This document shows positions 19,816-40,145 of a stretch of 64,000 nt of DNA, piece after piece; position 1 is the stretch's first letter, and each line of letters begins with the position of its first letter. Source of the stretch: a phage. The stretch lies in NCBI GenBank assembly GCA_029742005.1, contig GCA_029742005.1_4113.1; one strand, written 5' to 3'. A program made the translations under genes and the position numbers. The notes below the pieces were generated by a model. That model did not search any database and was not told the DNA's origin. It saw only the letters and a list, made by a program, of their open reading frames with translations.

Positions 19816-19827
19816 GAGTACTGATAT

Positions 19828-21794: not shown

Positions 21795-21802
21795 GGCGAA
21801 TT

Positions 21803-22348: not shown

Positions 22349-22655
22349 AATGCTTAATACAGTATCAGGGATATATGTAGAATTAGAATCCGATTATTCA
22401 GATGGATGGAATTTTATTAAACGACACGATAGAAATACATGGTACATGGCACATTTGGATAATGACGTAATAATAGATAATTTTGTCGATTTTAATACAT
22501 TATCAGAAGAAGAATTTTTCCAAATGCAATTTGTGCTTGATACAAATGGATTTGATTTGCTATTATTAAGGAATATTCAGAAAGCGGTTAATGAATTCAT
22601 AATCCAAAATAATTCAGGTAAAATGGGGATGTTCCATGATCTGGAAGTACAATGA
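22338..22655 (+). CDS. fam2 protein
   Basis: ORF track; motif EEEFFQMQFVLD. Confidence 0.6.
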   Translation: MKYKMLNTVSGIYVELESDYSDGWNFIKRHDRNTWYMAHLDNDVIIDNFVDFNTLSEEEFFQMQFVLDTNGFDLLLLRNIQKAVNEFIIQNNSGKMGMFHDLEVQ

Positions 22656-23193
22656 AATTCAGTACACCTACGCTAATGCAATCCTTATGGGACAAAAGTT
22701 AGCTTGTATTGTTGCAGCCTTATATAATGCACAGAAAGATTACAAGCGTCATATCCACAAATGTATTGGTATTATTCCATCGAAGTACAATACATATATT
22801 GCGTGCACGAGTCATTTTGATAAACGATTCAATACACCTGATACCCCAAATGCCAGTAGTGTTATTGGTCTTTTGGATTTCGCACCTGGTGCTGTTATTG
22901 GAAAGAATGATTTAGAGTACACATGGTATAATAAAAATGCCCCGTTAGTAATGGGAAAATATGATACAGAAACGAACAAAACAATAGAGTACAATACATA
23001 TAAATCAGAGGAAGAATTTTTCCAAGGTTCATTGCTTGTACCAGTGCGTTTGTTGTTTTATAATGTCCTTATTAGTACAGTACACAATAGTCCATTACAC
23101 AAGAATCACAAAATTAATTTCAATTTTTGTGCTTATGCGATTGATGGTGTGTATGAGTGTTTAATGGAGGTATTGAGTTATGAAGCTGAATAA
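22636..23193 (+). CDS. fam2 protein
   Basis: ORF track; RBS GGGGA; motif EEEFFQGSLLVP. Confidence 0.6.
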   Translation: MIWKYNEIQYTYANAILMGQKLACIVAALYNAQKDYKRHIHKCIGIIPSKYNTYIACTSHFDKRFNTPDTPNASSVIGLLDFAPGAVIGKNDLEYTWYNKNAPLVMGKYDTETNKTIEYNTYKSEEEFFQGSLLVPVRLLFYNVLISTVHNSPLHKNHKINFNFCAYAIDGVYECLMEVLSYEAE

Positions 23194-23521
23194 TACATTT
23201 GATATTAATAAGTTAAGAGAATGGTTTTATAGTATTGAAATTGAAGCCATCCCGTATCATAGATATGAACAATATAATTTAACCAGTATTGATATCCGTG
23301 AGTTGTACGCGTATTATCAAAGTGCATTAGAGATGCATAAGTTATTTTTGAGTACAGATTTTGTTATAAATTACAATTTTGAGGAATTTAATAATTATAA
23401 TTTAGTACAGAAATATGTAGTAGCAAAGTACATGTACCTTCAAGGAATTACAAGTAATTTGGAATTCAATACAGTCCTGGCTTTAGTTGAGGTAATTTTA
23501 TGCAGTACATGTATGATTTAG
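23180..23521 (+). CDS. hypothetical protein (possible divergent fam2)
   Basis: ORF track; motif not clear. Confidence 0.5.
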   Translation: MKLNNTFDINKLREWFYSIEIEAIPYHRYEQYNLTSIDIRELYAYYQSALEMHKLFLSTDFVINYNFEEFNNYNLVQKYVVAKYMYLQGITSNLEFNTVLALVEVILCSTCMI

Positions 23522-23895
23522 AGTTTAGTTTAGATGCTGCCTTTAAATTTGTTCACAAGATAGAAACAATATACAGTACATTATGTGCAATACAATCAGT
23601 ATCATCTGAGTTTGATGTTGGTGAAAAATATCAGGTATGGAATAATACATTTCTAAACAAAGAACGTTGCTCTACGGGGTTTAATATTTTAACATTTAAT
23701 CCCAGCAATTGTTACCCAGAGAAGCATGAACGTTATCCGAATGACGACATGTGGTTTGATTACACAAAAGATGGTGATATGTCATCCCTTGTAGTTCCTG
23801 ATGATTTTAATGCCGAAGATTTAACGGAAGAGTGGTGGTTTCAACAGAATTTAGTTCACGATGATATTGATTTATTTTTTTTATGTAGTATTTAA
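23500..23895 (+). CDS. fam2 protein
   Basis: ORF track; RBS GAGG; motif EEWWFQQNLVHDD. Confidence 0.6.
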   Translation: MQYMYDLEFSLDAAFKFVHKIETIYSTLCAIQSVSSEFDVGEKYQVWNNTFLNKERCSTGFNILTFNPSNCYPEKHERYPNDDMWFDYTKDGDMSSLVVPDDFNAEDLTEEWWFQQNLVHDDIDLFFLCSI

Positions 23896-24089
23896 AATGC
23901 TTTATCACAACAATATATTAAAAGATAGTGTGTTTTTTTCATGTCTATATATTGATGATTTGTACAATGAAATCCAAATCAACATTCCCAGCACGCCTGT
24001 ATCGTAAGATATGGGCTTTTTTCGTTTTGGTATTGACAAAGAAGTGCAAAGCTGTTATCATGTGTAATCATTTTAAAGGAGAACATATA

Positions 24090-24602
24090 GTGAGTTTCAT
24101 AATCCCAAGTACATACGAAGATGCATCAAGTGCAGTTCATAAGATTCATTATATTTTTAATTTAATTATTAGATCTGCAAAAATTAAAATGTATGCACCT
24201 CTTGTGGAATACGATAAAAATGAGGAAATTTTTGTTAGCACAGACCAAATTATTTTTCCATATTTCAATGAAGATAGATTGTGGTTCATGCATTTAGCTG
24301 CATTACAAAAATATAAAATGTCAATTCGTAATAATTTGGATATACCGTTATATCATCCTGATATTGGAGAGGATGAATATTTTCAGTACAGTACAGTACA
24401 CCGCCATGAAGATATCTTTGTTGCTATGCTTATTGCTAAATTGAATACCGTTGATTTGGAGCAGTACAAATACAATAATAAATCATGTAAGATCATAATC
24501 CCTGCATTCATAGCTCTTTATGATTATGTGGTGCATAACAAAAAAGATGATACATATGCTTTCAATGAAGAGTATTTGAATTTTTTTAAGGAGAACATAT
24601 GA
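24090..24602 (+). CDS. fam2 protein (GTG start)
   Basis: track ORF 23928..24602 runs through an internal TTGACA promoter; start placed at GTG 24090 behind RBS AAAGGAG; motif EDEYFQYSTVH. Confidence 0.5.
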   Translation: MSFIIPSTYEDASSAVHKIHYIFNLIIRSAKIKMYAPLVEYDKNEEIFVSTDQIIFPYFNEDRLWFMHLAALQKYKMSIRNNLDIPLYHPDIGEDEYFQYSTVHRHEDIFVAMLIAKLNTVDLEQYKYNNKSCKIIIPAFIALYDYVVHNKKDDTYAFNEEYLNFFKENI

Positions 24603-25126
24603 GCAGTGAAGTGCTGAAATCAATGACATTCAATGAAATTGGTGCATTTAAAGATAAGATCATTGATTGCATTGAATACATGATTTGTAGTAATATCGAA
24701 AGTATTGAGATATTTAACAAGACAAATCGCTCTTACCATATGATGTACATTGCAAACAATAATGGTATCATTCCATTTATTTCGGATAGTACAATATGGT
24801 ACGCATGTGATACGAAAAAAACCACAATAGGTTTACATTCATTTGAGACACATTATGATCTAATTATTCCTGAACATTGTATGCAAGAAGAAGAATATTT
24901 TCAAATGCAATGTATACATTCACCATTAGTGTTGTTTAGTTTATATATTATACCTTATATCACCAAATGTGTTCATGAGAATAAAGCTCCGTGGAATCAT
25001 GAATTTGTATCGTTGAAGTTATTGTATAATGTATTAGTAGAATATTATGATTACAGGCACAATGGTACAATCAGTGATGTATGGGATTTTGAATCGCTAA
25101 GGGTGAAAACATACACAGGTGAATGA
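24599..25126 (+). CDS. fam2 protein
   Basis: ORF track; ATGA overlap; motif EEEYFQMQCIH. Confidence 0.6.
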   Translation: MSSEVLKSMTFNEIGAFKDKIIDCIEYMICSNIESIEIFNKTNRSYHMMYIANNNGIIPFISDSTIWYACDTKKTTIGLHSFETHYDLIIPEHCMQEEEYFQMQCIHSPLVLFSLYIIPYITKCVHENKAPWNHEFVSLKLLYNVLVEYYDYRHNGTISDVWDFESLRVKTYTGE

Positions 25127-25127
25127 T

Positions 25128-25742
25128 ATGACCAGAATTAAAATGTATGATTTGATGCAGTACAGTAAAATTGCCATTCCAGTGCTTAATAAAGTGCTGG
25201 ATGCATTCATTGCCAAATACCCTGAGAATTCAGTGTTATGTATTCCATTTAGTGTTCCAGATAAAGATGATATATTCCAAGTGAATGTCAGTACACGTGG
25301 TATTACATTGCAGCAGAAATACATGGATACGGAATATTATGGAATAAAGTTGGATTCAGTACAGGGTTCAAAATCAGCCTATGATTTTTTTGTTCCTAAT
25401 AATATAGAGTCATGGGAAACAAACATTTCAAAGAAAGATGAAAATGATGTTCCTATTAGTGGTGTGTTCAACAATAAAGTTTTTTATTATTACGAAACCG
25501 ACAAATTCCCTGAAGAGTTATATTACAATTCAGAAATGATTGAAGATGTAGATGCATTCATGTTTCAATTATCGTTAGTACATGATATCATTGATGTTCA
25601 AGAGTTAAGAGCAGAAATCAATTTAGCTAAAGAGTTATCGGACATGCTGCCACCGTTTAGTATGCTTTTTTGTGAAGGAGGTTATTTTTCAAAAGAAGTG
25701 TTTGAACATTTCGTAGATGTTGTAAAAGGGTTGGATATATAG
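25128..25742 (+). CDS. fam2 protein
   Basis: track frame 25119..25742; start moved to ATG 25128 behind RBS AGGTGA; motif DAFMFQLSLVHD. Confidence 0.6.
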   Translation: MTRIKMYDLMQYSKIAIPVLNKVLDAFIAKYPENSVLCIPFSVPDKDDIFQVNVSTRGITLQQKYMDTEYYGIKLDSVQGSKSAYDFFVPNNIESWETNISKKDENDVPISGVFNNKVFYYYETDKFPEELYYNSEMIEDVDAFMFQLSLVHDIIDVQELRAEINLAKELSDMLPPFSMLFCEGGYFSKEVFEHFVDVVKGLDI

Positions 25743-25743
25743 T

Positions 25744-25938
25744 ATGCTTACAGTTGATGTTAAACAAAAATACCGTAAGTTTGATTGGTTCACCGACAGT
25801 TTCCAGCTTGAATTATTACATTTGAATATCTGTGAAACATTATGTGCAGAAACACAAGATGAATTTGATGATAGAGTGCTTCACATCGTAGTTCTTTCTT
25901 GCTTTAAACATTTTGGTTATTTTTTCGGACAGAATTGA
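25744..25938 (+). CDS. hypothetical small protein
   Basis: ORF track; weak RBS. Confidence 0.4.
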   Translation: MLTVDVKQKYRKFDWFTDSFQLELLHLNICETLCAETQDEFDDRVLHIVVLSCFKHFGYFFGQN

Positions 25939-25946
25939 GGTAAAAA

Positions 25947-26465
25947 ATGCATCAACACAAGCATCATTCATATGATTTTGCAATTAACATTATGAAGTTC
26001 ATTCGAGCGTTGGAGGATGGGAAGCTTAGTCATAAGTACACCAAAGTGGGTGACAATTGGTTCAGAAATGATGATGATGAGTTCAGAAGTCATAAGATTG
26101 TTTACAGCAATAATTACAGTGCCAATTACCTACAAGATGTAGTGATGTGTTTTGAATACGTGTTACAGTTCAGGGGTTCCATCAGTCCTGAGCTAAGAGA
26201 ACACATGTACATTCGATACCTACCAATGCTTAAGGATGAGAAATCAATATTCAATTCAGTACACCACAGAGTACGAGAGAGAACATTCAGAGATATTTTG
26301 GAAGATGAAGCTGCCTATTTTCAGCAATCATTGATTGATGCTCCTGATGTGTTACAGATGCAGAATTTGTATAATGTATTAGATGCGAACATCGATACGG
26401 ATATCTTTTTTTCCTTAAGTGATTATGAAACATTTTTGGAAGATTTAAAGGAAATAGGATTATGA
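25947..26465 (+). CDS. fam2 protein
   Basis: ORF track; RBS GAGGT; motif DEAAYFQQSLID. Confidence 0.6.
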   Translation: MHQHKHHSYDFAINIMKFIRALEDGKLSHKYTKVGDNWFRNDDDEFRSHKIVYSNNYSANYLQDVVMCFEYVLQFRGSISPELREHMYIRYLPMLKDEKSIFNSVHHRVRERTFRDILEDEAAYFQQSLIDAPDVLQMQNLYNVLDANIDTDIFFSLSDYETFLEDLKEIGL

Positions 26466-26806
26466 GTAGATTTTCAGTTTATATAGTAAACGTCAGTAAA
26501 GATGGTAGTTTAATTGAATTTGATGTAGTTGATAACAATGATAATTCATATGGTATTAAGGTACAGGACAATGATGTACAGTTCAGTACAAGGACAAATT
26601 TTGAGAATCCAGTCCAAGTTCCGAATTTCATAGAAGATGAAGCTGCACGATTCCAATACGAAACGGCCTTTGATAATTTAGCGATGCATATTATTATGCA
26701 AGAAAGTTTAGTTCAATTGCTTCAGGTATTCAGACAAAATATATATGTACATGAAGTGTCGATTAATGGCATTCAAAGTTCCGTTTTGTTCGGTACAAAT
26801 ATGTAA
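26462..26806 (+). CDS. fam2 protein
   Basis: ORF track; motif DEAARFQYETAFD. Confidence 0.55.
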   Translation: MSRFSVYIVNVSKDGSLIEFDVVDNNDNSYGIKVQDNDVQFSTRTNFENPVQVPNFIEDEAARFQYETAFDNLAMHIIMQESLVQLLQVFRQNIYVHEVSINGIQSSVLFGTNM

Positions 26807-26816
26807 GGAAAGTACA

Positions 26817-27371
26817 ATGAGTTCAATGAGTTTATTAGATACATTAGAAAAAGACAGAAGTGCCATTAAGAGATTAAAAAATCTTGTCCAGAGCATTGCG
26901 AACAACGCTGAGAAGTTCAGTGACAATCTTAGTATAGGTGATATAACCAGTACAGGAATAAAATCCCTGAAGTCAGATTTATTAATTCATAAGGAAGATA
27001 AATTATTATTTGTATTGAGTTCAGATTTAATGGTTGCAAGTAATGGTTTCAATTCGATATCAACACAAGATGGTAGCACAGGATTATATCTATCACAGGG
27101 TGTCCAGACGAACGAACAGAAGTGTTTTAGTTCAGGAGTACAGAATCCCTTTAAGTTCAGTACAGAACAAGCTACAGAGCTTTTAGAGGCTTCAGAAGAG
27201 ATGTTATTTCAGTACAAAACGGTTCATACAGATTTTGAATTACGATGCATGTACGCTGTTAAGCATTATGTTCAGGAGTTCGAGGATTTAAGTTATCTTT
27301 TAGTTCGAACGAATACAAAGAACATTGGTGCATTAGAAGATTACATTTCAAAAGTTGTTAAAGGTTGTTAA
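26817..27371 (+). CDS. fam2 protein
   Basis: track frame 26745..27371; start moved to ATG 26817 behind RBS AAGGAAAG; motif EEMLFQYKTVH. Confidence 0.6.
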   Translation: MSSMSLLDTLEKDRSAIKRLKNLVQSIANNAEKFSDNLSIGDITSTGIKSLKSDLLIHKEDKLLFVLSSDLMVASNGFNSISTQDGSTGLYLSQGVQTNEQKCFSSGVQNPFKFSTEQATELLEASEEMLFQYKTVHTDFELRCMYAVKHYVQEFEDLSYLLVRTNTKNIGALEDYISKVVKGC

Positions 27372-27380
27372 AGGGTGCTG

Positions 27381-27542
27381 ATGAAAGAGTTATTTGAAGA
27401 ACAGTTCGATACATATGTGGATAATATTCTTTATTCTAGCCGTGCTAGTCAACGAGGAAATCGTGCTTACAACATAGATTACCTATTAACGGTGCTGAGT
27501 TCACAGTACACCTACGCTGTACAGAGGACATATTATGAATAA
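27381..27542 (+). CDS. small hypothetical protein (53 aa)
   Basis: hand-called; below track cutoff. Confidence 0.35.
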   Translation: MKELFEEQFDTYVDNILYSSRASQRGNRAYNIDYLLTVLSSQYTYAVQRTYYE

Positions 27543-27738
27543 TTTTAGAGATGTTGCAAAGGAGAAGTTCAAGTGCAGTTTAGATTACGGTTTAAATGAT
27601 TTTCTTACATGCACAATGTACAGGAATGATGATTATGAGCAATCCGTAATTTCGTTGCACAGATATTTCGAAATAATTTACGCAAGATATCTTAGAAGGT
27701 TAGAGGGAATAGGGGATTGGAATTATGATTACGTTTGA
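27535..27738 (+). CDS. hypothetical small protein
   Basis: ORF track. Confidence 0.45.
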   Translation: MNNFRDVAKEKFKCSLDYGLNDFLTCTMYRNDDYEQSVISLHRYFEIIYARYLRRLEGIGDWNYDYV

Positions 27739-27949
27739 AGAGCCGGAAGTGGTATATTGCTTTAGTGTGAAAGGTTTTGAATACATGATGGATTCGATTT
27801 TGAAGGATACATATTTGGTTCAGATTGCAGTTACAGATAATACAGATAATGCATTACAGCGTGTAATGAATATGTACGAGAAGACAAGTCGAAGGCTTTG
27901 TGCAATGAAAAGGATTGAAGAAATCAAGGTTTCTAGGCTGAATAAATAG
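27725..27949 (+). CDS. hypothetical small protein
   Basis: ORF track. Confidence 0.45.
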   Translation: MITFEEPEVVYCFSVKGFEYMMDSILKDTYLVQIAVTDNTDNALQRVMNMYEKTSRRLCAMKRIEEIKVSRLNK

Positions 27950-28147
27950 AGACGTTTCATTTTGACAGGCCGCAGGGGGGTCAAAAAAATTTCCGCTGAA
28001 AAACATGCTAAGGTATATGTTTAATATAAAGTTTTATATTGTGTTTTTCAGAGTACAGTTCATGTTTCCTGAAACAAAAAAAATACCCCGCCACCGAACG
28101 TGCTCCTTATATTGGAGTTTACCTTATTAATTATAGTAGAGATTAAG

Positions 28148-28525
28148 ATGGAAATAAAATATAATGAATTTTGTGCAAGGACATGGATGTACACTGGTGA
28201 GTTAGTTACGCACTCTAACTTATACAAGGGTGATTTAAACTACGCTAGGGACAAGATTTTAAAGTACTGGAATGCTGACTTTTATTTGATGGATTTTAGT
28301 ACTGGGTTTAGGGGTAAAGCAACCGAGATGTTGGACTATACAGTACTTGATGATGCTGCACTGTTTCAGGAGGCATTAGTATTTGATAAGAAGTACATCT
28401 GTACATTAGAAGAGATGATTGAATTACAGCGTAGAATTAAATGTATTCACAGGGAATGTATAGATATCTGGTGCAGTACTGGTGAAGTTGATTTTTGTAA
28501 TCATTTCAATCTAGGGGAAGTGTGA
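28148..28525 (+). CDS. fam2 protein (triplet copy 1)
   Basis: track frame 28100..28525; start moved to ATG 28148; motif DAALFQEALVFDKKYICTLEE. Confidence 0.6.
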   Translation: MEIKYNEFCARTWMYTGELVTHSNLYKGDLNYARDKILKYWNADFYLMDFSTGFRGKATEMLDYTVLDDAALFQEALVFDKKYICTLEEMIELQRRIKCIHRECIDIWCSTGEVDFCNHFNLGEV

Positions 28526-28881
28526 TGGAATTTGATTTTTTAATATCAGTACATTCTTTTAAGCACAGTTTTCAGTACTTTTGTAATTTAAACAAAGGTG
28601 ATTTAATGCACAGTGCGAATGAGTATATTCATTTTACTGATGGTAAATTCTCATTTATTGATTACAGTTCATTAGATTTTCCATACACTGATATGCCGGA
28701 CTATACATTGATGGATGCTGGTGAACTATTTCAAGCTGCATTAGTATTTGACAAGAAGTACATCTGTACATTTGAAGAAGTAATTACTATACAAAATGAA
28801 ATGAAGGTGTATGCATCGTTGAATAAACCTAATGAATGTATTAATCAAGAATACAAATTCAATATAGGAATTCCAAAATGA
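28522..28881 (+). CDS. fam2 protein (triplet copy 2)
   Basis: ORF track; motif GELFQAALVFDKKYICTFEE. Confidence 0.6.
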   Translation: MMEFDFLISVHSFKHSFQYFCNLNKGDLMHSANEYIHFTDGKFSFIDYSSLDFPYTDMPDYTLMDAGELFQAALVFDKKYICTFEEVITIQNEMKVYASLNKPNECINQEYKFNIGIPK

Positions 28882-29237
28882 CATATGATTATTCTATGTA
28901 CTATTATAAGTTACCTAAAGGATGGGACTTGTGCTGTAATCTTATTAAGGGAGACTCGGAACATGAGTTGAGTTTATATATGCACTACAAAGATTCTTGT
29001 TTTAAATTTATTCATGTATTACATGATGGCTATGACTATGAATCTGAGAGTCTTATAGATTATACAGTACTGGACGATGGTGAACTATTTCAGGAAGCAT
29101 TAGTGTTTGATAAGAATAAGTACTCCTGTACATTTGAAGAAATGGTTTCTTTGCAAAATGAAATGAAGAGATTTGAAAAAGAAAACGTATTTAATCCATC
29201 CCCATCAAGAACGAATAATTATTATTTCAATATATGA
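28878..29237 (+). CDS. fam2 protein (triplet copy 3)
   Basis: ORF track; motif GELFQEALVFDKNKYSCTFEE. Confidence 0.6.
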   Translation: MTYDYSMYYYKLPKGWDLCCNLIKGDSEHELSLYMHYKDSCFKFIHVLHDGYDYESESLIDYTVLDDGELFQEALVFDKNKYSCTFEEMVSLQNEMKRFEKENVFNPSPSRTNNYYFNI

Positions 29238-29246
29238 GATTATAAA

Positions 29247-29741
29247 ATGACATTACAGAGTTCATTGGAAAAAGCAAAGAAGATTCATGAGTACATGAAT
29301 ATGGCAAAAGAAGGTTCAGTTTACGGTGTTTTCAAAGACACAAGTACTCAATATTATGTGCCAGATAACCTCCTTTATAATGACTGCTCAGATACAGAAA
29401 CGTGCGTACTGGATACAGAAACGTGCATACTAGATACCGACCCTAATGATTATGAATGTTTCATTGATATGCATAATGAGTACATGGTCTATATTAATGA
29501 TGCAGATATTACCATATACAGTACTGACTGCGATTCCGATGACATTATAATTCCGAGTGAAGTACTAGAAGGTCAGTGGGATAGTGAAGAGTATTACTTC
29601 CAACAAAGTACTGTTTACGATGATGAAGTACTTGAAGTATTAGTTATTATGTGGTACTTTAAAAGTATTGGTTCTGGGAACTTCTATTTCGATTACAGAT
29701 ACGTAACGAAAACTGTAGATAACGGTATTAACAGGGGTTGA
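29247..29741 (+). CDS. fam2 protein (MSLxxALE subgroup)
   Basis: ORF track; motif SEEYYFQQSTVYDDEVLEVLVIMWYFKS. Confidence 0.65.
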   Translation: MTLQSSLEKAKKIHEYMNMAKEGSVYGVFKDTSTQYYVPDNLLYNDCSDTETCVLDTETCILDTDPNDYECFIDMHNEYMVYINDADITIYSTDCDSDDIIIPSEVLEGQWDSEEYYFQQSTVYDDEVLEVLVIMWYFKSIGSGNFYFDYRYVTKTVDNGINRG

Positions 29742-29742
29742 A

Positions 29743-30213
29743 ATGAGTTTAGAAAGAGCATTAGAGATTGCGAAGTTAATTGATTTATGCAGCAAAGAAA
29801 TTGTATCAAATTGTCTCAATGGATATCTATTCAAGGAAGGTAAATCATATTGTCGAATGATATACGATGACAGTAGTGAATATATCCATATGTATGAAGA
29901 AAACTTAGATGATTCTGACATAGTACTCACAGGATGTGATGTTAATTTGGAAGATAATTACATGTACTTCTGCCGTGATGCTGATATTTTAATCCAAGAT
30001 TCATTAATTCAAACAGGTGCACCAGAGGTATATCTTCCGTATTCAGTACTGGATAATAACTGGGGTAGTGAAGATTACTATTTCCAGCAGAGTACTATAT
30101 ATAATGAAGATATACTTGACAAACTTGTTATTTCGTGGTACTTTCATAACACGGATTATAGTAGCTTCTACATAGACTTGGATCTACTAAGAGTACTTAA
30201 AGAGGATATATGA
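29743..30213 (+). CDS. fam2 protein (MSLxxALE subgroup)
   Basis: ORF track; motif SEDYYFQQSTIYNEDILDKLVISWYF. Confidence 0.65.
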   Translation: MSLERALEIAKLIDLCSKEIVSNCLNGYLFKEGKSYCRMIYDDSSEYIHMYEENLDDSDIVLTGCDVNLEDNYMYFCRDADILIQDSLIQTGAPEVYLPYSVLDNNWGSEDYYFQQSTIYNEDILDKLVISWYFHNTDYSSFYIDLDLLRVLKEDI

Positions 30214-30650
30214 GTTTAGAAAGAGCACTAGAACTAGCCAACAAAATACATCAGTACTACGATAAAATAAAAAGTGGGTTCTATGGTGATAAAGTACATG
30301 CATATGGGAATGAATATTACCTCACAGGAGTAAAGAGATACTCTAATGATATTTTACTTATGGGTCATGATAAAGACTATACTATACAGTACTCTTCATG
30401 TAGTCAATATACTAGTTTTATGGTATATATTCCTGGTACTAAGATTACTTTTGACACATCAAATACACCTGTTGACTTTGAAGTGTTGGAAGGACCGTGG
30501 GGTACTGAAGAATATTACTTCCAACAGAGTCTCATTTTTAACCAAGAAATGCTTGATTCCTTGGTTGTGTTGTGGTACTTTAAGGAATTGAATTTTGAAC
30601 CATTCTTTCTTGACTGGGGATCATGTGAGTATTTAATTTCAGGGGAATAA
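30210..30650 (+). CDS. fam2 protein (MSLxxALE subgroup)
   Basis: ORF track; motif TEEYYFQQSLIFNQEMLDSLVVLWYF. Confidence 0.65.
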   Translation: MSLERALELANKIHQYYDKIKSGFYGDKVHAYGNEYYLTGVKRYSNDILLMGHDKDYTIQYSSCSQYTSFMVYIPGTKITFDTSNTPVDFEVLEGPWGTEEYYFQQSLIFNQEMLDSLVVLWYFKELNFEPFFLDWGSCEYLISGE

Positions 30651-30652
30651 TA

Positions 30653-31141
30653 ATGTCATTACAAAGTGCATTGAAAGAAGCAAAGAAAATTCATGAGTTC
30701 ATGATTATGGTACAGGAAGGTTCAGTACCAGGTGTATACAAAACATCAGATACGGAATTCTTCGTTAAGGATAGAGATGATTATGACGATTCAGAGGTAT
30801 GTGCAGAAACATTAGTACTGCACACTGATACTGGTGACAGTGATAACTGTGAATATCATATGTACAATCAGTACATTAGTTATTGCCGTAATGAAGATAT
30901 TACCATCTACAACACAGATAGTGATGCTGATGACACTATCATTCCTTATTCAGTACTGGAAGGTCCGTGGGATAGTGAAGAATATTACTTCCAGAATAGT
31001 ACTATCTACAATGAAGAAGAACTGGATGTTATTGTGATTATGTGGTATTTCAAAAGTATTGACTCCAGTAGTTTCTATTTTGATTATGAATATGTAGAGA
31101 ATACAGTAGGAGAAGGTAATGTCATTACAAAGTGCTCTTGA
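30653..31141 (+). CDS. fam2 protein (MSLxxALE subgroup)
   Basis: ORF track; motif SEEYYFQNSTIYNEEELDVIVIMWYF. Confidence 0.65.
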   Translation: MSLQSALKEAKKIHEFMIMVQEGSVPGVYKTSDTEFFVKDRDDYDDSEVCAETLVLHTDTGDSDNCEYHMYNQYISYCRNEDITIYNTDSDADDTIIPYSVLEGPWDSEEYYFQNSTIYNEEELDVIVIMWYFKSIDSSSFYFDYEYVENTVGEGNVITKCS

Positions 31142-31571
31142 AAAAGCAAAAGAACTACATGGATACTTTGAAGATATAAAGGCCGGAAAGTTCAAAGAAG
31201 TGTACAAAGCCGAGAACGGTAACTACTACAAAGATGAAATGTATAATAACTCCGTTGGTGTAAGGGTTATTCTTGGGTTGAATTCCAATAGTCCTATATC
31301 GTTTTCTGAATACAATAGAGATGCAGAATTTATTAGTTATGTTGAAAATGGTAGCATTCGTTTTATTAATAGACAAAAACCATTAATTTTGAATTATGAA
31401 GTACTGGATGGACAGTGGAATAGTGAAGAGTATTACTTCCAAAACAGTACTGTATATGATGATGAAGTACTTGAAGCATTAGTTATTATGTGGTACTTCA
31501 AGAGTGTTAGCTGTCCTCGATTTTATTTGGATTTCGAAGATCTTCGTAAAGATCCAGAAGGTATAGAATGA
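31119..31571 (+). CDS. fam2 protein (MSLxxALE subgroup)
   Basis: ORF track; RBS GGAGAAGG; motif SEEYYFQNSTVYDDEVLEALVIMWYF. Confidence 0.65.
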   Translation: MSLQSALEKAKELHGYFEDIKAGKFKEVYKAENGNYYKDEMYNNSVGVRVILGLNSNSPISFSEYNRDAEFISYVENGSIRFINRQKPLILNYEVLDGQWNSEEYYFQNSTVYDDEVLEALVIMWYFKSVSCPRFYLDFEDLRKDPEGIE

Positions 31572-31882
31572 AAAACTTATTCAGTGTTCAGTACGTTCCT
31601 GGTGAAATTGGTTTATTGTATCTATTTGACCATGATAATTCATTATTACTAGTAGTGAAGAAATGCCAAGCTAGTTCGTTTGTTGAATACATTCACGATA
31701 GTGAATACATTCCTGATTTCCTAGAGTGTGATTATCACGATGAACATGAATCATTTATTTTTCAGGAATCACTCGTTTGGGATAAGTCTATTAACTTCTT
31801 TACGTTAATTGAATTACAAAAGCAGGTGAAGTATCATTGGGATTACTTAATTACACAGGATTACATTGAGATAGAAATATAA
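31568..31882 (+). CDS. fam2 protein
   Basis: ORF track; motif HESFIFQESLVWDK. Confidence 0.6.
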   Translation: MKNLFSVQYVPGEIGLLYLFDHDNSLLLVVKKCQASSFVEYIHDSEYIPDFLECDYHDEHESFIFQESLVWDKSINFFTLIELQKQVKYHWDYLITQDYIEIEI

Positions 31883-32190
31883 TGACTAAAAATGAATTTG
31901 ATTCACTTTGTACGGTTTATAATTCATTGACAGAAATACCTGACTTTATTAATTACATTTCAGCTTTAAATCAAATTATGCATAGTTTTGAACAATCGTT
32001 TGAAGAGAAATATGCAGGTAGAAAAGTTCTATGTCATATGTCAATGTACTTGGGAGATGGTGAGCCTTACACTACCAGTACTACATGTGAAATAAAAAAA
32101 TATAATATATTATTGGGCACAATAGAATTCACAGTATCCAATGGTGGTAGTTATATGTACTTTAGAGATGGAGTGGTTGAATTATTATGA
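31882..32190 (+). CDS. hypothetical protein (non-family)
   Basis: ORF track; no family motif. Confidence 0.5.
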   Translation: MTKNEFDSLCTVYNSLTEIPDFINYISALNQIMHSFEQSFEEKYAGRKVLCHMSMYLGDGEPYTTSTTCEIKKYNILLGTIEFTVSNGGSYMYFRDGVVELL

Positions 32191-32636
32191 GTTACGAAAG
32201 TGCAATCAAGAAAGCAAATGATATTCTAAAAGTTGTTCAGTTCTTCAAAGAAAATCCTGAATACTTAGCTGATGAAAACCATGATCACGATGAGAGATTG
32301 AGACGAAAAATTGTTTCTTTATTTGACACTAATGCAGATAATTATAGTCTAATTGAGTTAGCATACGATTATATTTCATTGAACCGAAACGGACATTTAG
32401 TTAATATAGAAAGACATGCGACTGAAGAATCTTTTAAAATTTCAGACATTTTATCCCTGAGTACTGAAGAAGGGTACTTCCAGGGTAGTACTGTTTATGA
32501 ACAAGGAACGCTTGACAATCTATGCACATTCAGTGTAATATATCAGAAATCAGTACTGGATGTATTTTATCTTGACACTGCTGAACTGGATACACTAATC
32601 AATTTTGTTACTACTGAAGAGGCCACATTCGAGTGA
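32187..32636 (+). CDS. fam2 protein
   Basis: ORF track; motif TEEGYFQGSTVYEQ. Confidence 0.6.
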   Translation: MSYESAIKKANDILKVVQFFKENPEYLADENHDHDERLRRKIVSLFDTNADNYSLIELAYDYISLNRNGHLVNIERHATEESFKISDILSLSTEEGYFQGSTVYEQGTLDNLCTFSVIYQKSVLDVFYLDTAELDTLINFVTTEEATFE

Positions 32637-33169
32637 TGAAAGTTAACATCAATGACTTTGATGCATTACAAGATTTATCAAAAAAGATTCGTATCATCGT
32701 ACCAGTACTAAAAAAATGCAGTACTGGTTTAATTGATCCTAGTACTGTTGTTAATGAGAAGTACAATTTTCATCGTGTATTACAGGGTACAGGTGCATTT
32801 CAGAAGTGTGATGTACGTGAGAAACACGTAATTGATACATCATTGTTTTCTATTGGTGCACCTGTGTCGAATAATTCTATTTTCTTGGATAACGCAGGAA
32901 ATATTCAACAATTAACATTTAAGAAAAGGAAAAAGAACAATAACATTGGTGTGTACGCGATGAAGTGGGGGAAACCTGATTTGAAGCGTGAAATTCACAT
33001 CCCTAAGTACAATTACAATGCATTTGACGAACAGTGTTTTCAACTATCGTGTACTGACCCTGACTATGCAATCATTCAGTTCTATATGGAATTGCAGATA
33101 GCATTTAATAGTAATTTGTATATTAACTTATTGGCGATGAACATCGATGAAGTATTCAAAAACATTTAA
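32633..33169 (+). CDS. fam2-like protein
   Basis: ORF track; motif FDEQCFQLSCTDPD. Confidence 0.55.
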   Translation: MMKVNINDFDALQDLSKKIRIIVPVLKKCSTGLIDPSTVVNEKYNFHRVLQGTGAFQKCDVREKHVIDTSLFSIGAPVSNNSIFLDNAGNIQQLTFKKRKKNNNIGVYAMKWGKPDLKREIHIPKYNYNAFDEQCFQLSCTDPDYAIIQFYMELQIAFNSNLYINLLAMNIDEVFKNI

Positions 33170-33365
33170 TCGAATTGAATACATGAGAACTGTGAGTGCA
33201 GTGTGGGATATATGGTTCACTACTAAACCAAAAATGGATTACCATGACTTTAAGCTATTGTTCTTCATTGGCTCTAACAAACAGGATGTTGCAATGAAGG
33301 GTTATATTCAGCACTTACAGGAACTAATACAGAAGAGGGTTAATGAAAATAATAGACCAAGATGA
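33147..33365 (+). CDS. fam1-like small protein inside the fam2 array
   Basis: ORF track; motif FIGSNKQDVA. Confidence 0.5.
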   Translation: MKYSKTFNRIEYMRTVSAVWDIWFTTKPKMDYHDFKLLFFIGSNKQDVAMKGYIQHLQELIQKRVNENNRPR

Positions 33366-33534
33366 TATTGCTAAACTATTCAATATATATTCTACTAGAA
33401 TGATGCAAACAGACTCATATAGTACTGAATTCAAAGAGTTGAAAGTACTGATGTACTTGGGAACCCAATATCAGGAACAAGTTATTTTGGAATATATTAA
33501 TTCGTTGAAGAAGGATATCCGTTATGTACGATGA
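33343..33534 (+). CDS. fam1 small protein inside the fam2 array
   Basis: ORF track; RBS AGAGGG; motif YLGTQYQEQV. Confidence 0.55.
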   Translation: MKIIDQDDIAKLFNIYSTRMMQTDSYSTEFKELKVLMYLGTQYQEQVILEYINSLKKDIRYVR

Positions 33535-34084
33535 TTTAGATCTTGCGTTTGAACGTATGGTAATTTTAATGCAATGTGCAGAAATGCATGAAACAATCCG
33601 TCGCACCAAAGGGATTGAATATACAAGTAAACTATTCTCATACGAAAGTCGTCGAGGGATGGATCATTTTTACTGCACTGATTGTTCAAAGTTTTCAGTA
33701 CTGAAATATTATCATCCTACTGTTTCCAATAATAGTTTAATATCCACATATGACGGTGATCTGTTTAGTGTAATGTATGACACATTACATCCATCAATTT
33801 CAATCTATAAAGATTGCGATAGTAGTTTATCGTATATAATTGAAGATTACTTATCTCCTAATACTGAAGAGAATATTTTTCAGAACAGTGTGTTGCATGA
33901 TGAATTAAGTATAAAATGCATCTATATGTTCAATAAGTTAAAAGAGTACGCCGATAATAATTACTTCATTGATGATTTAGCGGTATTGTCTGTTTCCGTT
34001 TTTAATACAAATGATATTGATATGAAATACTATAATGAGATTTGTAAAGTACATCATATGTATAAGGAACTATTATGTCAATAA
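33524..34084 (+). CDS. fam2 protein
   Basis: ORF track; motif EENIFQNSVLHDE. Confidence 0.6.
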   Translation: MYDDLDLAFERMVILMQCAEMHETIRRTKGIEYTSKLFSYESRRGMDHFYCTDCSKFSVLKYYHPTVSNNSLISTYDGDLFSVMYDTLHPSISIYKDCDSSLSYIIEDYLSPNTEENIFQNSVLHDELSIKCIYMFNKLKEYADNNYFIDDLAVLSVSVFNTNDIDMKYYNEICKVHHMYKELLCQ

Positions 34085-34677
34085 ATGCAAATAAATGTTG
34101 TAGTGCAAATGTGCATTTGTTTTTTAAGAAATTAGCAAATGATATTATATATATGCAGGAAATGATTTATCACAAACGAGCGGATTTAGAAAAAGCATTA
34201 GTACAGTTCTCATTTATGCTTGATGGTGATATATTTCTAGAGAGTGATGCATTGCGAATAGTATTAGACAAAAATGCTAAAAGATTTTTATTTCATATAG
34301 ATAATAAATTATGTTCCTCCGTATGTCGTACTTTTTATAATCGTGATTCGGACTTATATCAATTCCTTTATTCCAAAGGTGCAGTAGAAGCATCATATGG
34401 TGATGGTTATGCCCTAGGAAAGAGTATTCCATTTATGAAATCATTTAAAATAGAACACATCAGTACTGATGAAGATGCAATGTTCACAAATGATATAACT
34501 ATGGGACGTGAAGATGCAATGCGATATATTACAAATTCTATGCATACATTCTTTCAACGAACAGAATTTGATAATGTATATATATCAAATGTAAATATTT
34601 TCAATGACCTGTGTCAGTACTTGAGAAGTGTTTGTGACTTCGATGAAAGTTATTGTAAGCTATACACTGAGGTATAA
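34075..34677 (+). CDS. fam2-like protein (divergent motif)
   Basis: ORF track; RBS AAGGAA; motif DEDAMFTNDIT. Confidence 0.5.
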   Translation: MSINANKCCSANVHLFFKKLANDIIYMQEMIYHKRADLEKALVQFSFMLDGDIFLESDALRIVLDKNAKRFLFHIDNKLCSSVCRTFYNRDSDLYQFLYSKGAVEASYGDGYALGKSIPFMKSFKIEHISTDEDAMFTNDITMGREDAMRYITNSMHTFFQRTEFDNVYISNVNIFNDLCQYLRSVCDFDESYCKLYTEV

Positions 34678-34682
34678 AACAA

Positions 34683-35045
34683 ATGAACACATTAAGTATT
34701 ACATACTATACAACTAAAAAATTAGTTACTTGTTTAATATCTTTGAAGACAAACCATGATGATATGTTTGATATGGCTGCATATGAATTAGAATTATCAG
34801 AAGATGGCTTCAAGAGCTATGAATTATATAGCTATGTCCGTGAAGATGTAATTGACACTACACTAATGCAAGAGGATGAGTTATTCCAAGAAAGTTTAGT
34901 ATGGGATAATAAGTACGATTGTAACTTTGATTTCTTATGTTTAATCCAGAAAGAAATGAAAAGAATCTTTGATAATTATCCAATCAAACGTTTCAGTACT
35001 GCACCTGAGCAATATAAAAGGATTATATTCACCTATGAAGATTGA
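34683..35045 (+). CDS. fam2 protein
   Basis: ORF track; RBS GAGGT; motif EDELFQESLVWDN. Confidence 0.6.
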   Translation: MNTLSITYYTTKKLVTCLISLKTNHDDMFDMAAYELELSEDGFKSYELYSYVREDVIDTTLMQEDELFQESLVWDNKYDCNFDFLCLIQKEMKRIFDNYPIKRFSTAPEQYKRIIFTYED

Positions 35046-35412
35046 ATTTGAAGTTATTACATATAGTATAGGTGATGGTATCCGTTGCTATGTACAAGCA
35101 AGGCATATGGTTCCTGATGATAAACTGTCACCCAAAAGCTTCTGTATCACACAAGATCTCTTAGATATCAACGGAGAGTACAAGTACATATATTATCTTA
35201 CTAAGGGTTATTGTAGTACACGTGGTTTTAATATTGTAGCTGTTTCTAGAGATGAAATTGATGATTTAACTGAGTACGGGGAAGAAGAGATGTTCCAGTA
35301 CAGTACTGTTTTTAATGAACTGGATGTGTTTCTGTTACGAAAAATACAACACATTATGCAAGAATGTTTGCATCATAAGAGAGGTATTGTATGCGACGTG
35401 AATCTGAATTAG
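35035..35412 (+). CDS. fam2 protein
   Basis: track frame 34969..35412; start moved to ATG 35035; motif EEEMFQYSTVFNE. Confidence 0.55.
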   Translation: MKIEFEVITYSIGDGIRCYVQARHMVPDDKLSPKSFCITQDLLDINGEYKYIYYLTKGYCSTRGFNIVAVSRDEIDDLTEYGEEEMFQYSTVFNELDVFLLRKIQHIMQECLHHKRGIVCDVNLN

Positions 35413-35732
35413 TTAAAGTAATGTACGCTACTCATATTAAACTACTACTTGTTAAATTTGATTATAATAAAAAACATAATGATTTCTATACTTTAATTCG
35501 TGATGAAAATACATTCTCCTTGCGATGCAACAATATACCCTTGAAGATAAATGATTTTACTTCACTTGACGAGGGGGAATTATTTCAAGAATCATTAGTT
35601 TTTAATAGTAATATAAAAATTGATATAGAAGTTATTAAAAAATACCAGATTCTATTGAACAAAATTATGAATTGTTATCCATGTGAAATAGGTGGTCATA
35701 TGCAGTTCAAATCAAAAATGTATGAATTATGA
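35391..35732 (+). CDS. fam2 protein
   Basis: ORF track; RBS GAGAGG; motif DEGELFQESLVFN. Confidence 0.6.
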   Translation: MRRESELVKVMYATHIKLLLVKFDYNKKHNDFYTLIRDENTFSLRCNNIPLKINDFTSLDEGELFQESLVFNSNIKIDIEVIKKYQILLNKIMNCYPCEIGGHMQFKSKMYEL

Positions 35733-35739
35733 GGTTTAT

Positions 35740-36276
35740 ATGTTAGATAAAAAAATGAACTCTGGAACCCAATATAATCATCTTAAGTTGGATACATTCG
35801 AATCAGCTATCAGTACAGCACAAGATATAATTGATATTATCAAGTTCATTAAAAAAGATAAGTTCAAATGTTTGAAAATACTAAATCGTTCAATGTACCG
35901 TGATAAAAATATTCATGTATCAGTACGTAGACCGAAAGATCAAGAAAGTGGGAGAGATTTCTATAACAACAGTGAGCAGTTCGAATGTGAATATGATCCA
36001 GAATTTAGAGGTGGTTTCATGTGTTACAGTATGAAGGATACCTCACACATTGAGATACGTTCATCGAAAGGTGGCATACGTACATTAGAGTTTATTGATA
36101 TAGTTTTAAATCAGGAATACTACTTTCAACTATCATTATTGTTTCCTGCATACGATTTAGGAGTTCTATTCATGTATAAGTACTTTCATGAGCACTGGAA
36201 TGAAGACTTCTATCTGGACTTAGAAGATTACCAATTAGTTTGGGAAGAAATGGTAGAACTTCGCAACCACTCTTGA
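35740..36276 (+). CDS. fam2 protein
   Basis: track frame 35692..36276; start moved to ATG 35740 behind RBS GAGG; motif NQEYYFQLSLLFP. Confidence 0.6.
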   Translation: MLDKKMNSGTQYNHLKLDTFESAISTAQDIIDIIKFIKKDKFKCLKILNRSMYRDKNIHVSVRRPKDQESGRDFYNNSEQFECEYDPEFRGGFMCYSMKDTSHIEIRSSKGGIRTLEFIDIVLNQEYYFQLSLLFPAYDLGVLFMYKYFHEHWNEDFYLDLEDYQLVWEEMVELRNHS

Positions 36277-36330
36277 CACCCACCGATTTTTTGTGATATA
36301 ATCCCTTTATATTAATTGTAAAGGGTTATA
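36273..36330 (+). promoter_or_regulatory. internal promoter (TTGACA plus extended -10 TGATATAAT) and 5' stem-loop
   Basis: TTGACA, about 18-nt spacer, TGATATAAT; hairpin CCCTTTA..TAAAGGG before the RBS of 36336. Confidence 0.55.
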
Positions 36331-36335
36331 ACACA

Positions 36336-36812
36336 ATGTCCAAAGACCTATCATTTAGCAATGCACAAAAAATAGCAAAAGACATTATCAGGGTTTATAA
36401 ATTCCTTGCGAATGTTACTGAAGATTTTTTAATTGATAAAAATAAAGTTATTAAACGAAATGGATATCTTTCCTTTATGGATGGGTTACTCTATAGCTCA
36501 GATGAATCAACTTGTAGTATTAGAGTGCTTGATGAAGTACCAAGTGGTGATTTTATTTCATACCATTTCCCAAGTTCAGATAATTTCAAATACTACAATC
36601 ATCTTCTTATAAATGAAGCATTTGATACGATTGTAATTAACACTGAAGAAGAGTTCTTCCAGTACAGTACTGTGTATCCAGAGAGGATTGTTTTCAGTTC
36701 AGTGATTTTAACAGCCCTTAAAAATGAACTAAATTCCGATAGTGATCATTTCTACTTGGACCTGAACAATGTCGATTGTATTATTGAGTACCTGGAGAAA
36801 AATGGTTTATGA
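36336..36812 (+). CDS. fam2 protein
   Basis: ORF track; motif EEEFFQYSTVYPE. Confidence 0.65.
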   Translation: MSKDLSFSNAQKIAKDIIRVYKFLANVTEDFLIDKNKVIKRNGYLSFMDGLLYSSDESTCSIRVLDEVPSGDFISYHFPSSDNFKYYNHLLINEAFDTIVINTEEEFFQYSTVYPERIVFSSVILTALKNELNSDSDHFYLDLNNVDCIIEYLEKNGL

Positions 36813-37303
36813 TTACTACAGAATATGATTACGATGGTGTTTTAGAATTTGCAGAAAATATCTATCGCATTGCAAAGGAGTTCAGAAGTCCTAAACCTTT
36901 TGGTGGTATGTTTCAATACGATGAGTTCAGTTCATCTAAAGGAAGACTAGCATTTACTAATGGTAGAGGTAATCAAATCTACGCGGAGTACTTTGATGAT
37001 AATGACTTTCATTACAAAGCAGAATACATTTCATATTGCCCTGGGTCTGATTTGAAGATTAATATTGATACATTTAGAGAAGCAGTACAAGTTCCATATA
37101 ATGATTTAGTATTCATGTCAGAGGAAATGTACTTTCAGAAATCATTGATTAATGATACAAAAGTACTTAATGCTATGTTATTTTATGGTGCACTACTTCA
37201 TCATTACAAATACAAACAACGATTCTTTTTAGATTTAGCAGTATACTATAAATGCGTGGATTATTTGAATGCAAAATACGACAACAATTCAGTACATGAC
37301 TGA
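36809..37303 (+). CDS. fam2 protein
   Basis: ORF track; motif SEEMYFQKSLIND. Confidence 0.6.
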   Translation: MITTEYDYDGVLEFAENIYRIAKEFRSPKPFGGMFQYDEFSSSKGRLAFTNGRGNQIYAEYFDDNDFHYKAEYISYCPGSDLKINIDTFREAVQVPYNDLVFMSEEMYFQKSLINDTKVLNAMLFYGALLHHYKYKQRFFLDLAVYYKCVDYLNAKYDNNSVHD

Positions 37304-37631
37304 TGGTACTGAATACTTTGTTTCAAGATATGTAATCAACCACAACCATTATGTAACCTATATTCCAGAATACAATCAATTTTATATCCAGATTTATCAA
37401 TATAATGGAAAGATAAATGATATATATTCAGAAATAAAAATCCCTGATTATAGTACTTTATCAGAAGAGGAATTATTTCAGGAGAGCACTATAAGTACTG
37501 AAGATGTGTACGAAATAATGGAATACCAGAAGGTACTTAAACATTTTCATGAAGCAAATGATATACAAATCGATATTGTTAAACCGTGGTGTTACAATAC
37601 ATATGAGGTAAATTATGTTAGAAATGATTAA
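37269..37631 (+). CDS. fam2 protein
   Basis: ORF track (start uncertain; alternative ATG 37296); motif SEEELFQESTIS. Confidence 0.55.
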   Translation: MQNTTTIQYMTDGTEYFVSRYVINHNHYVTYIPEYNQFYIQIYQYNGKINDIYSEIKIPDYSTLSEEELFQESTISTEDVYEIMEYQKVLKHFHEANDIQIDIVKPWCYNTYEVNYVRND

Positions 37632-40140: not shown

Positions 40141-40145
40141 TGGCT

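Follow-up and report, generated by a model that had tools for sequence, protein, structure and literature searches.

Two tandem gene families beside the terminal repeat of an Asteriusvirus jumbo coliphage and the conservation of their copies

Between positions 28148 and 31571 of the phage DNA studied here eight adjacent genes resemble one another, a triplet followed by a quintet, and similar runs of smaller genes stand upstream of them. Are these genes young copies which are still being multiplied or old members of gene families, and what might the phage use them for? The window, that is, the whole stretch of 64,000 nucleotides that was analyzed, belongs to an Asteriusvirus jumbo coliphage (121Q/PBECO4 group); it is 95% identical to 121Q at the nucleotide level and is matched by 36 Asteriusvirus records. 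When the annotation of the direct terminal repeat (DTR) of vB_Ec-M-J is mapped onto the window, positions 1..13463 (+ strand) fall within the terminal repeat, of which they are the final ~13.4 kb; the rest of the window is the DNA beyond it. The genes in the repeat part are individually promoted, as seen from the enrichment of promoters and terminators. The arrays of similar genes start directly to the right of the repeat and are coded almost wholly on one strand by tightly abutting open reading frames. Sigma-70 promoters are not enriched within the arrays (97 found, 112 expected) and thus do not show early expression.

The flagged open reading frames are all present, all on the + strand, and carry the sequence motifs quoted for them in an earlier note on this DNA. 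The triplet comprises short-type members at 28148..28525, 28522..28881 and 28878..29237, the quintet long-type members at 29247..29741, 29743..30213, 30210..30650, 30653..31141 and 31119..31571. The first gene is assigned by the open reading frame list and its match to PHROG 15629 (E = 2e-58), the next five by open reading frame, ortholog and PHROG match, joined by the tree for quintet copies 2 and 3. For quintet copies 4 and 5 the open reading frame list is complemented by a structure model and by the comparison of copies, respectively. A GTG at 28100 provides an alternative start for the first triplet gene. Just past the flagged range the open reading frame list and profile searches give a further short-type member (31568-31882, +) and a further long-type member (32187-32636, +). 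Between the two lies an unrelated open reading frame (31882-32190, +), at the position of which Ecwhy_1, SP27 and ph0011 have a member of the superfamily. That the listed neighbors are homologous is borne out by BLASTP clusters (E <= 1e-4) and by profile E-values of 1e-10 to 1e-37, with no match at all to reversed or shuffled sequences.

Triplet and quintet belong to a single superfamily, as profile searches started from each converge on the same 37-38 open reading frames. Starting from two independent seeds, iterated profile searches delimit an array of 38 members in ~28 kb (19474..47455, +), which adjoins the DTR and lies upstream of Rnl1 and PNKP. In the alignment a Phe-Gln pair within the motif EExxFQxS is invariant in all 38 members, for which we call the proteins the FQ superfamily. 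The pair is also found in every large-family match of 121Q (39), A4 (40) and Turkey5 (33) and in 16 of 17 matches of the Salmonella phage SE_PL, where the motif-bearing proteins are again arranged in an array (example motif TEELYFQYSLLYS). In the model of quintet copy 4 (pLDDT 86, pTM 0.82) the motif, F113-Q114-x-S116, falls into a helix that is predicted with confidence, within a compact fold. The invariant pair could belong to the folding core instead of being a functional site. For this confidently predicted fold the PDB offers no match. A fold search with Foldseek points to the phages RaK2, GAP32 and BF at E-values of only 3e-3 to 6e-2. The proteins are acidic (median pI 4.78).

The large family matches PHROGs 9317, 12674, 15629, 13866 and 32253 (E = 1e-53 to 1e-70). 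The first four of them, matched at E = 1e-53 to 1e-66, show cross-hits among one another. According to the profile searches one superfamily here is split among several groups there. Its known distribution is narrow: a word-indexed search for relatives found only 39 proteins, and a HMMER scan 129 matching cluster representatives among 1.84 billion. Among ten sampled representatives nine came from Asteriusvirus phages or contigs, mostly contigs of ~350 kb, three of the nine being known only from short contigs. The tenth, a protein of 348 aa from a 5.3-Mb contig matched in four short stretches, is probably spurious.

The second array (13562..21093, +) consists of ~29 genes for proteins of 65-94 aa with the motif LGT(N/D)xQ, as defined by similarity clusters and matches to PHROG 4148 (E = 1e-10 to 1e-22). 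It includes the small genes at 16838/17058/17284 and 18162/18368; similarity searches place two further members at 33147-33534. A confident AF2 model predicts a three-helix fold. Both families have an aromatic-Gln motif, and we considered a kinship between them; a hhalign probability of 0.2% led us to reject it. For both families PDB profile searches gave nothing below E = 0.3, and searches of Pfam, NCBIfam and PADLOC no match; all matched PHROGs are labelled "unknown function". With 38 and ~29 adjacent, co-oriented and homologous genes the arrays are tandem multigene families formed by tandem duplication. Together they fill ~36 kb, roughly a tenth of a 350-kb genome.

The proposal of the earlier note that the arrays arose by tandem duplication and that the copies continue to exchange sequence is supported by three kinds of traces: a cassette, a register shift and a conversion cluster. 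The cassette of 589 bp lies between exact direct repeats of 32 nt in 121Q and G17 and is missing here, where the single copy of the repeat (28523-28554) forms the first 32 nt of the second triplet gene. The register shift concerns the small family. At 16828..17513 (+) the self-match and the coverage by isolates delineate three tandem units of ~220 nt (16828-17287 against 17048-17513, 69.7% nt identity); vB_Ec-M-J and PBECO4 have two units only. The shift of 220 nt is seen against vB_Ec-M-J, whose DNA aligns to the tandem units in both registers. In both cases the breakpoints fall at homologous positions of adjacent copies. The copy number differs across isolates: this phage, 121Q, A4 and Turkey5 have 38, 39, 40 and 33 members of the large family and 31, 26, 25 and 22 of the small one. 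The third trace is a putative micro-conversion tract in quintet copy 1 (29636-29645), where six clustered changes are private to this phage and all six match copy 5 (31473-31487), the apparent donor. Around the tract a 112-nt patch (29558-29669) is 89% identical to copy 5, and between these two copies pS is 0.33 in the C-terminal module and 0.77 upstream of it. The donor could instead have been an unsampled allele of copy 1.

Exchange need not be confined to one genome. The arrays might have been built mainly by horizontal import of related cassettes at conserved gene boundaries, with little duplication in place. Indeed, for one and the same pair of genomes dS can leap from 0 to 0.35 between adjacent genes, and isolates carry different family members at the same position, namely at 29247 (another member in ph0011 and CMSTMSU), at 31882 (see above) and at the pair 18162/18368, for which 121Q and A4 have one or the other type. 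Neighboring copies are more alike than distant ones in both families, by a small margin: adjacent pairs have 19.0% identity against 16.7% for random pairs in the large family (permutation p = 0.0016) and 28.6% against 23.8% in the small family (p = 0.0002). From this slight signal it follows that some members may have come by recombination with other phages and not by duplication in place. The junctions at the direct repeat and the register shift, however, are within-array events. Moreover, the searches found the family only in this phage group, so that any donor would be a relative carrying these arrays as well, and duplication would still stand at their beginning. We therefore regard import as the main builder of the arrays as unlikely.

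We then ask how old the copies are. The earlier note took them for very recent, near-identical duplicates which arise by ongoing unequal crossing-over, in the manner of a genomic accordion, while positive selection diversifies their variable parts. Several observations agree with this: for several genes the neighbors are the closest relatives, footprints of unequal crossing-over and copy-number differences exist, and the variable center has the highest dN/dS. The degree of divergence does not fit. The nucleotide self-comparison confirms that similarity is present, yet at best it amounts to ~69% over ~480 nt with short patches of 80-89%. The proteins are 31-58% identical within the quintet, 37-43% within the triplet and about 47-53% for the small genes (47-50% for 16838/17058/17284, 49% for 18162/18368), which is far from near-identical. 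Synonymous differences between the copies are saturated (pS 0.53-0.76), whereas the same-position orthologs in other Asteriusvirus isolates are about 69-100% identical in amino acid sequence. All eight flagged genes have one-to-one orthologs in 121Q, PBECO4, G17, SP27 and Ecwhy_1; for the first triplet gene they are 94-99% identical, and 68% in ph0011. In a neighbor-joining tree the genes cluster by position and not by genome. Likewise, the complete small triplet and the pair are collinear at 91-96% nucleotide identity in Turkey3, phAPEC6 and slurp01. Nowhere did we find the combination of ~95% or more nucleotide identity and low synonymous divergence that marks recent duplication, nor are copies missing or collapsed in close relatives, where only single units vary. 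Saturated synonymous sites, positional orthologs and trees grouping by position thus refute the very recent origin; as read from the sequences, the duplications are old.

The view that the N-terminal parts diverge faster than the C-terminal modules is roughly right. The C-terminal module is conserved, but in the quintet so are the first ~15 residues, and it is the center that varies: by thirds of the protein the mean pairwise identity is 0.24, 0.16 and 0.47. Diversifying selection finds no support, as dN/dS between orthologs is 0.06-0.67 gene-wide. It reaches 0.33 in the variable center against 0.20-0.23 in the conserved ends, which indicates weaker constraint there and not an omega above 1; at the scale of genes the ratio stays below 1 throughout. 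Between paralogs the ratio is uninformative because the synonymous sites are saturated. Net purifying selection has maintained every copy as a gene of its own. Considering in addition that arrays of the family exist in another phage lineage (SE_PL), we judge a recent accordion under positive selection to be very improbable. More generally, neither recent duplication nor positive selection can be concluded from runs of similar neighboring genes in a jumbo phage.

The explanation which we consider probable is that of two old and unrelated tandem families whose copies are conserved and undergo birth-and-death evolution, the large family serving, as we guess, as binders of host targets. As the sequence comparisons show, tandem duplication had expanded both families well before the Asteriusvirus isolates sampled here diverged; for the large one this dates back beyond its separation from the Salmonella phage SE_PL lineage. 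The arrays are now in birth-and-death evolution: recombination between the similar 5' ends of neighboring copies deletes or adds whole-gene cassettes, the conserved C-terminal modules exchange short gene-conversion tracts, and co-infecting relatives swap alleles. The large-family protein itself appears to be a conserved scaffold, made of an N-terminal helix and the helical EExxFQxS module, which bears a variable, beta-rich center. Our best guess is that these proteins are diversified intracellular binders of host targets which could act in host takeover or counter-defence. For such a role the support is positional, the arrays lying next to the DTR and upstream of Rnl1 and PNKP. Essentiality data for this phage group were not found, the transposon-mutagenesis papers being concerned with other phages. 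Every sampled member of the genus retains both families copy by copy, which amounts to a large and stable investment. Old and constrained copies on one scaffold with an invariant motif also turn the locus into a tractable question, namely what each copy binds.

The array products might also be packaged as internal-head or ejection proteins similar to the phiKZ-type inner-body paralogs, with ExxFQxS as a processing site. An inner body of as yet unassigned composition is present in 121Q and in phAPEC6, and the motif loosely resembles a protease recognition site of the ExxYxQ(G/S) type. Yet the proteome table of phAPEC6 virions, with 62 detected proteins, contains no gp4xx product, the array there being gp~426c-442c, and among the records examined not one gives an array member a structural annotation. 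The motif also lies in a confidently predicted helix within a compact fold. For this reason, and since virions lack the proteins, the likeness of ExxYFQxS to a TEV-type protease site was set aside. We consider such a role in the virion to be even less probable than a recent accordion. Finally, that the open reading frames are not genes and their similarity reflects repeated noncoding DNA is practically negligible, as the lack of a functional annotation in the libraries searched is outweighed by the tightly abutting one-strand coding, by ortholog dN/dS below 1, by a protein similarity stronger than the DNA similarity and by confident AF2 models for both families.

Two old tandem families are thus the reading with which we compare the locus to known systems. 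The existence of the array is already known in print for 121Q and phAPEC6: the tandem array of 121Q was remarked on by Hua et al. (2017, mBio, PMC5646251) and Wagemans et al. (2020, PMC7247149) repeated the remark for phAPEC6. These phages are of the same genus, and the genes meant are very probably the same. Both papers devote one sentence to it, without a definition of the family, its age, motif, structure or dynamics, and leave open which of the two arrays is meant; the published "very similar" overstates the identities, which are 15-58% here. A comparative review of jumbo phages does not discuss the array. Phage G has a lineage-specific expansion of ~35 zinc-ribbon genes (Iyer et al. 2021, PMC7824862; Hua et al. 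2017). As here, a family of small proteins has undergone a large tandem expansion in a jumbo phage, but the zinc-ribbon family differs in fold and kinship from both families of the window, neither of which matched a zinc-ribbon or other Pfam domain.

The MGF110/360/505 genes of African swine fever virus and the host-range families of poxviruses are terminal multigene families of large DNA viruses of eukaryotes. Like the arrays described here they consist of diverged tandem paralogs beside terminal repeats, they encode non-virion products, and their copy content varies among isolates via recombination within the array. The proteins are unrelated. For the eukaryotic viruses a function in host range or immune evasion has been demonstrated; for the phage it is a guess. 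By analogy, the ~38 FQ proteins, perhaps together with the ~30 small three-helix ones, might be terminal multigene families of phages, with an undescribed fold that has the invariant EExxFQxS as its core and presents a hypervariable beta surface, each paralog neutralizing a different host factor or defence system. We offer this tentatively, as rather doubtful; if true, the array would determine which hosts RaK2-like jumbo phages can infect. The genomic accordions of poxviruses, known from the amplification of K3L, provide the second comparison. There, too, the copy number shifts by recombination between tandem copies, but accordion copies are near-identical and transient, whereas the phage copies have saturated synonymous sites and are fixed throughout the genus.

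The 27-33 kb region matches 36 phage records, all of them from E. coli or Salmonella jumbo phages, with 121Q as the top match (95.4% nucleotide identity over 99% of the query). The classification as Asteriusvirus is read from the matching records that were opened, except for Turkey5, whose record lacks the genus. The open reading frames named in an earlier note are present in the ORF list of the window, and the gene runs singled out there are indeed homologous. In an all-against-all BLASTP comparison (clustering cut-off E<=1e-4) the short-type triplet (28148, 28522 and 28878) falls into a cluster of 7 and the long-type quintet (29247, 29743, 30210, 30653 and 31119; copies 1-5) into one of 8, and the small genes (triplet 16838/17058/17284 and pair 18162/18368) belong to a cluster of 29. 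The copies had been called near-identical, but protein identity is just 31-58% within the quintet, whose two most similar members (29247 and 30653) are not neighbours, 37-43% within the triplet, 47-50% among 16838/17058/17284 and 49% for 18162/18368. A sensitive nucleotide self-comparison, the dot-plot proposed in that note, gave only about 69% identity over about 470-485 nt for the best pairs and a few patches of 80-89%, each about 90-110 nt long. The elevated identity between neighbours, whose absence was to speak against recent duplication, is present in both families, though small: neighbours are 19.0% identical versus 16.7% for random pairs in the large family (p=0.0016) and 28.6% versus 23.8% in the small family (p=0.0002).

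The duplications are old and not very recent as had been proposed; four tests agree. Synonymous differences between the copies are saturated (pS 0.53-0.76; dS from 0.9 to beyond measurement). All eight flagged genes, that is, triplet and quintet, have same-position orthologs in 121Q, PBECO4, G17, SP27 and Ecwhy_1 (69-100% amino acid identity), and seven of the eight have them in ph0011 (65-83%); their best paralogs are only 31-58% identical. Orthologs of four quintet genes are still recognisable in the divergent phage A4 (60-88%), and Turkey5 and JNE01 keep part of the arrangement. In a neighbour-joining tree the sequences cluster by position rather than by genome. Finally, the complete 2-kb stretch with the triplet and pair of small genes aligns collinearly and without a break in Turkey3 (95.6% nucleotide identity), phAPEC6 (91.3%) and slurp01 (91.2%), and the copies within it differ among themselves by about 30% of their nucleotides.

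Diversifying selection on the variable part was likewise suggested, but is not borne out by the orthologs. Gene-wide dN/dS is 0.06-0.67, mostly 0.2-0.35. Pooled across the quintet plus gene 32187, dN/dS between orthologs reaches 0.33 in the variable centre, against 0.23 in the N-terminal helix and 0.20 in the C-terminal module. Thus, the centre is less constrained than the ends. The C-terminal module is conserved, as had been noted, but so are the first ~15 residues, and it is the centre rather than the N-terminus which varies (mean pairwise identity of the quintet by thirds 0.24, 0.16 and 0.47).

Of the earlier interpretation the mechanism stands, duplication and exchange between copies, whereas recency and diversifying selection do not. 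Continuing unequal crossing-over is supported by a cassette flanked by direct repeats, a register shift and copy-number differences among isolates. Phages 121Q and G17 carry 589 bp extra between triplet copies 1 and 2, which encode a 75-aa fragment starting exactly as triplet copy 2 (MEFDFLISVH...), then a 122-aa superfamily member (...SEEEFFQESTVW...). On either side of the insert stands an exact direct repeat of 32 nt, TGATGGAATTTGATTTTTTAATATCAGTACAT. In the window this sequence occurs once (28523-28554); its left flank is that of one repeat and its right flank that of the other. Such a junction is the footprint of adjacent paralogs recombining at their 5′ ends. In the small family, three units of ~220 nt are found at 16828-17513 and two in vB_Ec-M-J, whose DNA can be aligned with the window units in either register; the first unit or the 18162/18368 region is missing from several further isolates. 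The large family counts 38 members in the window, 39 in 121Q, 40 in A4 and 33 in Turkey5; the respective counts of the small family are 31, 26, 25 and 22.

Exchange also occurs at a smaller scale. Only 8 sites set quintet copy 1 apart from all five of its close orthologs; 6 of these sites fall within 10 nt (29636-29645), and all six match the state of copy 5 at the aligned positions. We infer that this is a short conversion tract private to the phage of the window. Between copies 1 and 5 pS is 0.33 in the C-terminal modules and 0.77 upstream. For one genome pair dS shifts from 0 to ~0.35 between successive genes, and some array positions are occupied by different family members in different isolates, which together point to an exchange of alleles between phages. 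At 31882-32190 the window has an ORF of 102 aa outside both families, where Ecwhy_1, SP27 and ph0011 bear a 147-157-aa superfamily member instead; one cassette has apparently replaced another here. In ph0011 (ORF 3603-4016) and CMSTMSU (ORF 3668-3991) a fourth short-type member stands in place of quintet copy 1. A further small ORF is annotated in ph0011 at 4013-4198, and the CMSTMSU record is apparently full of frameshifts in the array region.

Triplet and quintet belong to one superfamily. Iterated profile searches of the window ORFs, seeded separately with the quintet and the triplet, end at the same set of 37-38 ORFs, which lie between 19,474 and 47,455, and neither profile matches reversed or shuffled window ORFs even at E<=10. 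The short members (104-120 aa, triplet included) match only from profile positions ~40-55 to ~131-153 and therefore lack about the N-terminal third of the long form. In the alignment of 38 sequences the sole invariant residue pair, the start methionine aside, is Phe-Gln within a near-invariant EExx-F-Q-x-S-(L/T)-(V/I) motif. Identity to the alignment reference is 8-24%, except for the four other quintet members (30-58%) and 32187 (29%). The proteins are mostly acidic (median pI 4.78). A search of the predicted fold against predicted viral structures returned other Asteriusvirus proteins and, at E 3e-3 to 6e-2 (probability 0.8-1.0), uncharacterised proteins from Klebsiella phage RaK2, Serratia phage BF and Cronobacter phage GAP32. 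A relative outside the sampled genus was confirmed in Salmonella phage SE_PL, whose polynucleotide kinase is 53% identical to its counterpart in the window. Upstream of the RNA ligase, SE_PL has a syntenic array (MT001829.1, 236000-285900) with more than 20 ORFs of 150-220 aa bearing (T/E)EExxFQxS, for example, TEELYFQYSLLYS and TEEKLFQYSTIYP; 17-20 of the SE_PL ORFs match the profile built from the window. When 1.84 billion cluster representatives were scanned in full with HMMER, 129 matched. Nine of ten sampled are from Asteriusvirus phages or contigs, and the tenth is probably spurious. Most of the sampled Asteriusvirus-type contigs are ~350 kb long and often labelled E. coli; three are short contigs without source name. 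Clusters P0040-P0229 likewise hold many Asteriusvirus proteins deposited as "Escherichia coli" on ~350-kb contigs of bacterial assemblies. E. coli sequencing projects thus seem often to pick up whole phage genomes, as carrier state or contamination. The A4 member A4_348 (18064-18600) is named "DNA ligase" in the public record, a name without support here and probably an annotation error.

The small genes at 13.5-21 kb form a separate family with the motif LGT(N/D)xQ; kinship with the large family was rejected (profile-profile probability 0.2%). The model is a predicted three-helix protein (pLDDT 93), for which the structure search returned generic helical matches only. No small-family member was found in the SE_PL array region, so that the family may be an Asteriusvirus-specific expansion. 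Two isolated members (33147-33365 and 33343-33534) lie within the large-family array, 12 kb from the remaining family, and share 99-100% protein identity with their orthologs in 121Q.

Passages in Hua et al. 2017 (PMC5646251) already note the tandem array of 121Q and passages in Wagemans et al. 2020 (PMC7247149) that of phAPEC6, and PHROGs holds both families as unknown function; the phenomenon is therefore in print. What this analysis adds is an age for the copies, the union of triplet and quintet in a single FQ-motif superfamily whose predicted fold has no PDB match and which is also present in SE_PL, and concrete traces of unequal crossover and micro-conversion. The arrays are an ordinary jumbo-phage feature, noted before, and the unexplained protein family that they contain is of modest interest. 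Array products are absent from the 62 proteins detected in phAPEC6 virions (the table passes from gp347 to gp549; array members are gp426c and gp442c), and the products are therefore taken to be intracellular. An accessory, host-directed role would fit the location of the arrays beside the terminal repeat and upstream of tRNA-repair genes, the acidity of the proteins and the fact that every copy has been kept over a long time. Our favoured guess is that the proteins are diversified binders sharing one scaffold.

The direct terminal repeat annotated at 1-21,525 in vB_Ec-M-J ends at ~13,463 when mapped to the window, between genes 13121-13330 and 13562-13759, and thus the gene arrays begin at the repeat boundary. 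By this mapping the window comprises the final ~13.4 kb of the repeat and the initial ~50 kb of unique DNA. Almost all coding is on the + strand, with ORFs that tightly abut or overlap. Sigma-70 promoters are not enriched in the arrays (97 found versus 112 expected). The repeat part (1-13463) differs: genes are spaced apart, seven perfect 12/12 sigma-70 consensus promoters lie on the + strand (4847, 6563, 7544, 7812, 8171, 8601 and 11700), and terminator-like sites are roughly twice as many as expected. The genes here look like early genes, each with a promoter of its own. Downstream of the arrays, a T4 Rnl1-type RNA ligase 1 (60063-61205) is followed by a polynucleotide kinase/phosphatase (62302-63234); the two enzymes are those of a T4-like tRNA-repair (anti-anticodon-nuclease) pathway. 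Beside them lies an ORF with a NUMOD3 motif (63221-63961), possibly a homing endonuclease. Within the repeat an intergenic cassette of ~200 nt recurs at 4270-4471, 7278-7474, 10581-10784 and 11986-12086 (78-87% identity between copies). It carries a hairpin with a 12-bp stem, AAAGGGATTGACTCCGGTCAGTCCCTTT, with a -35-like TTGACT within the stem and TATTAT after it, and we take these cassettes to resemble the promoter-early stem-loop cassettes of T4-type phages.
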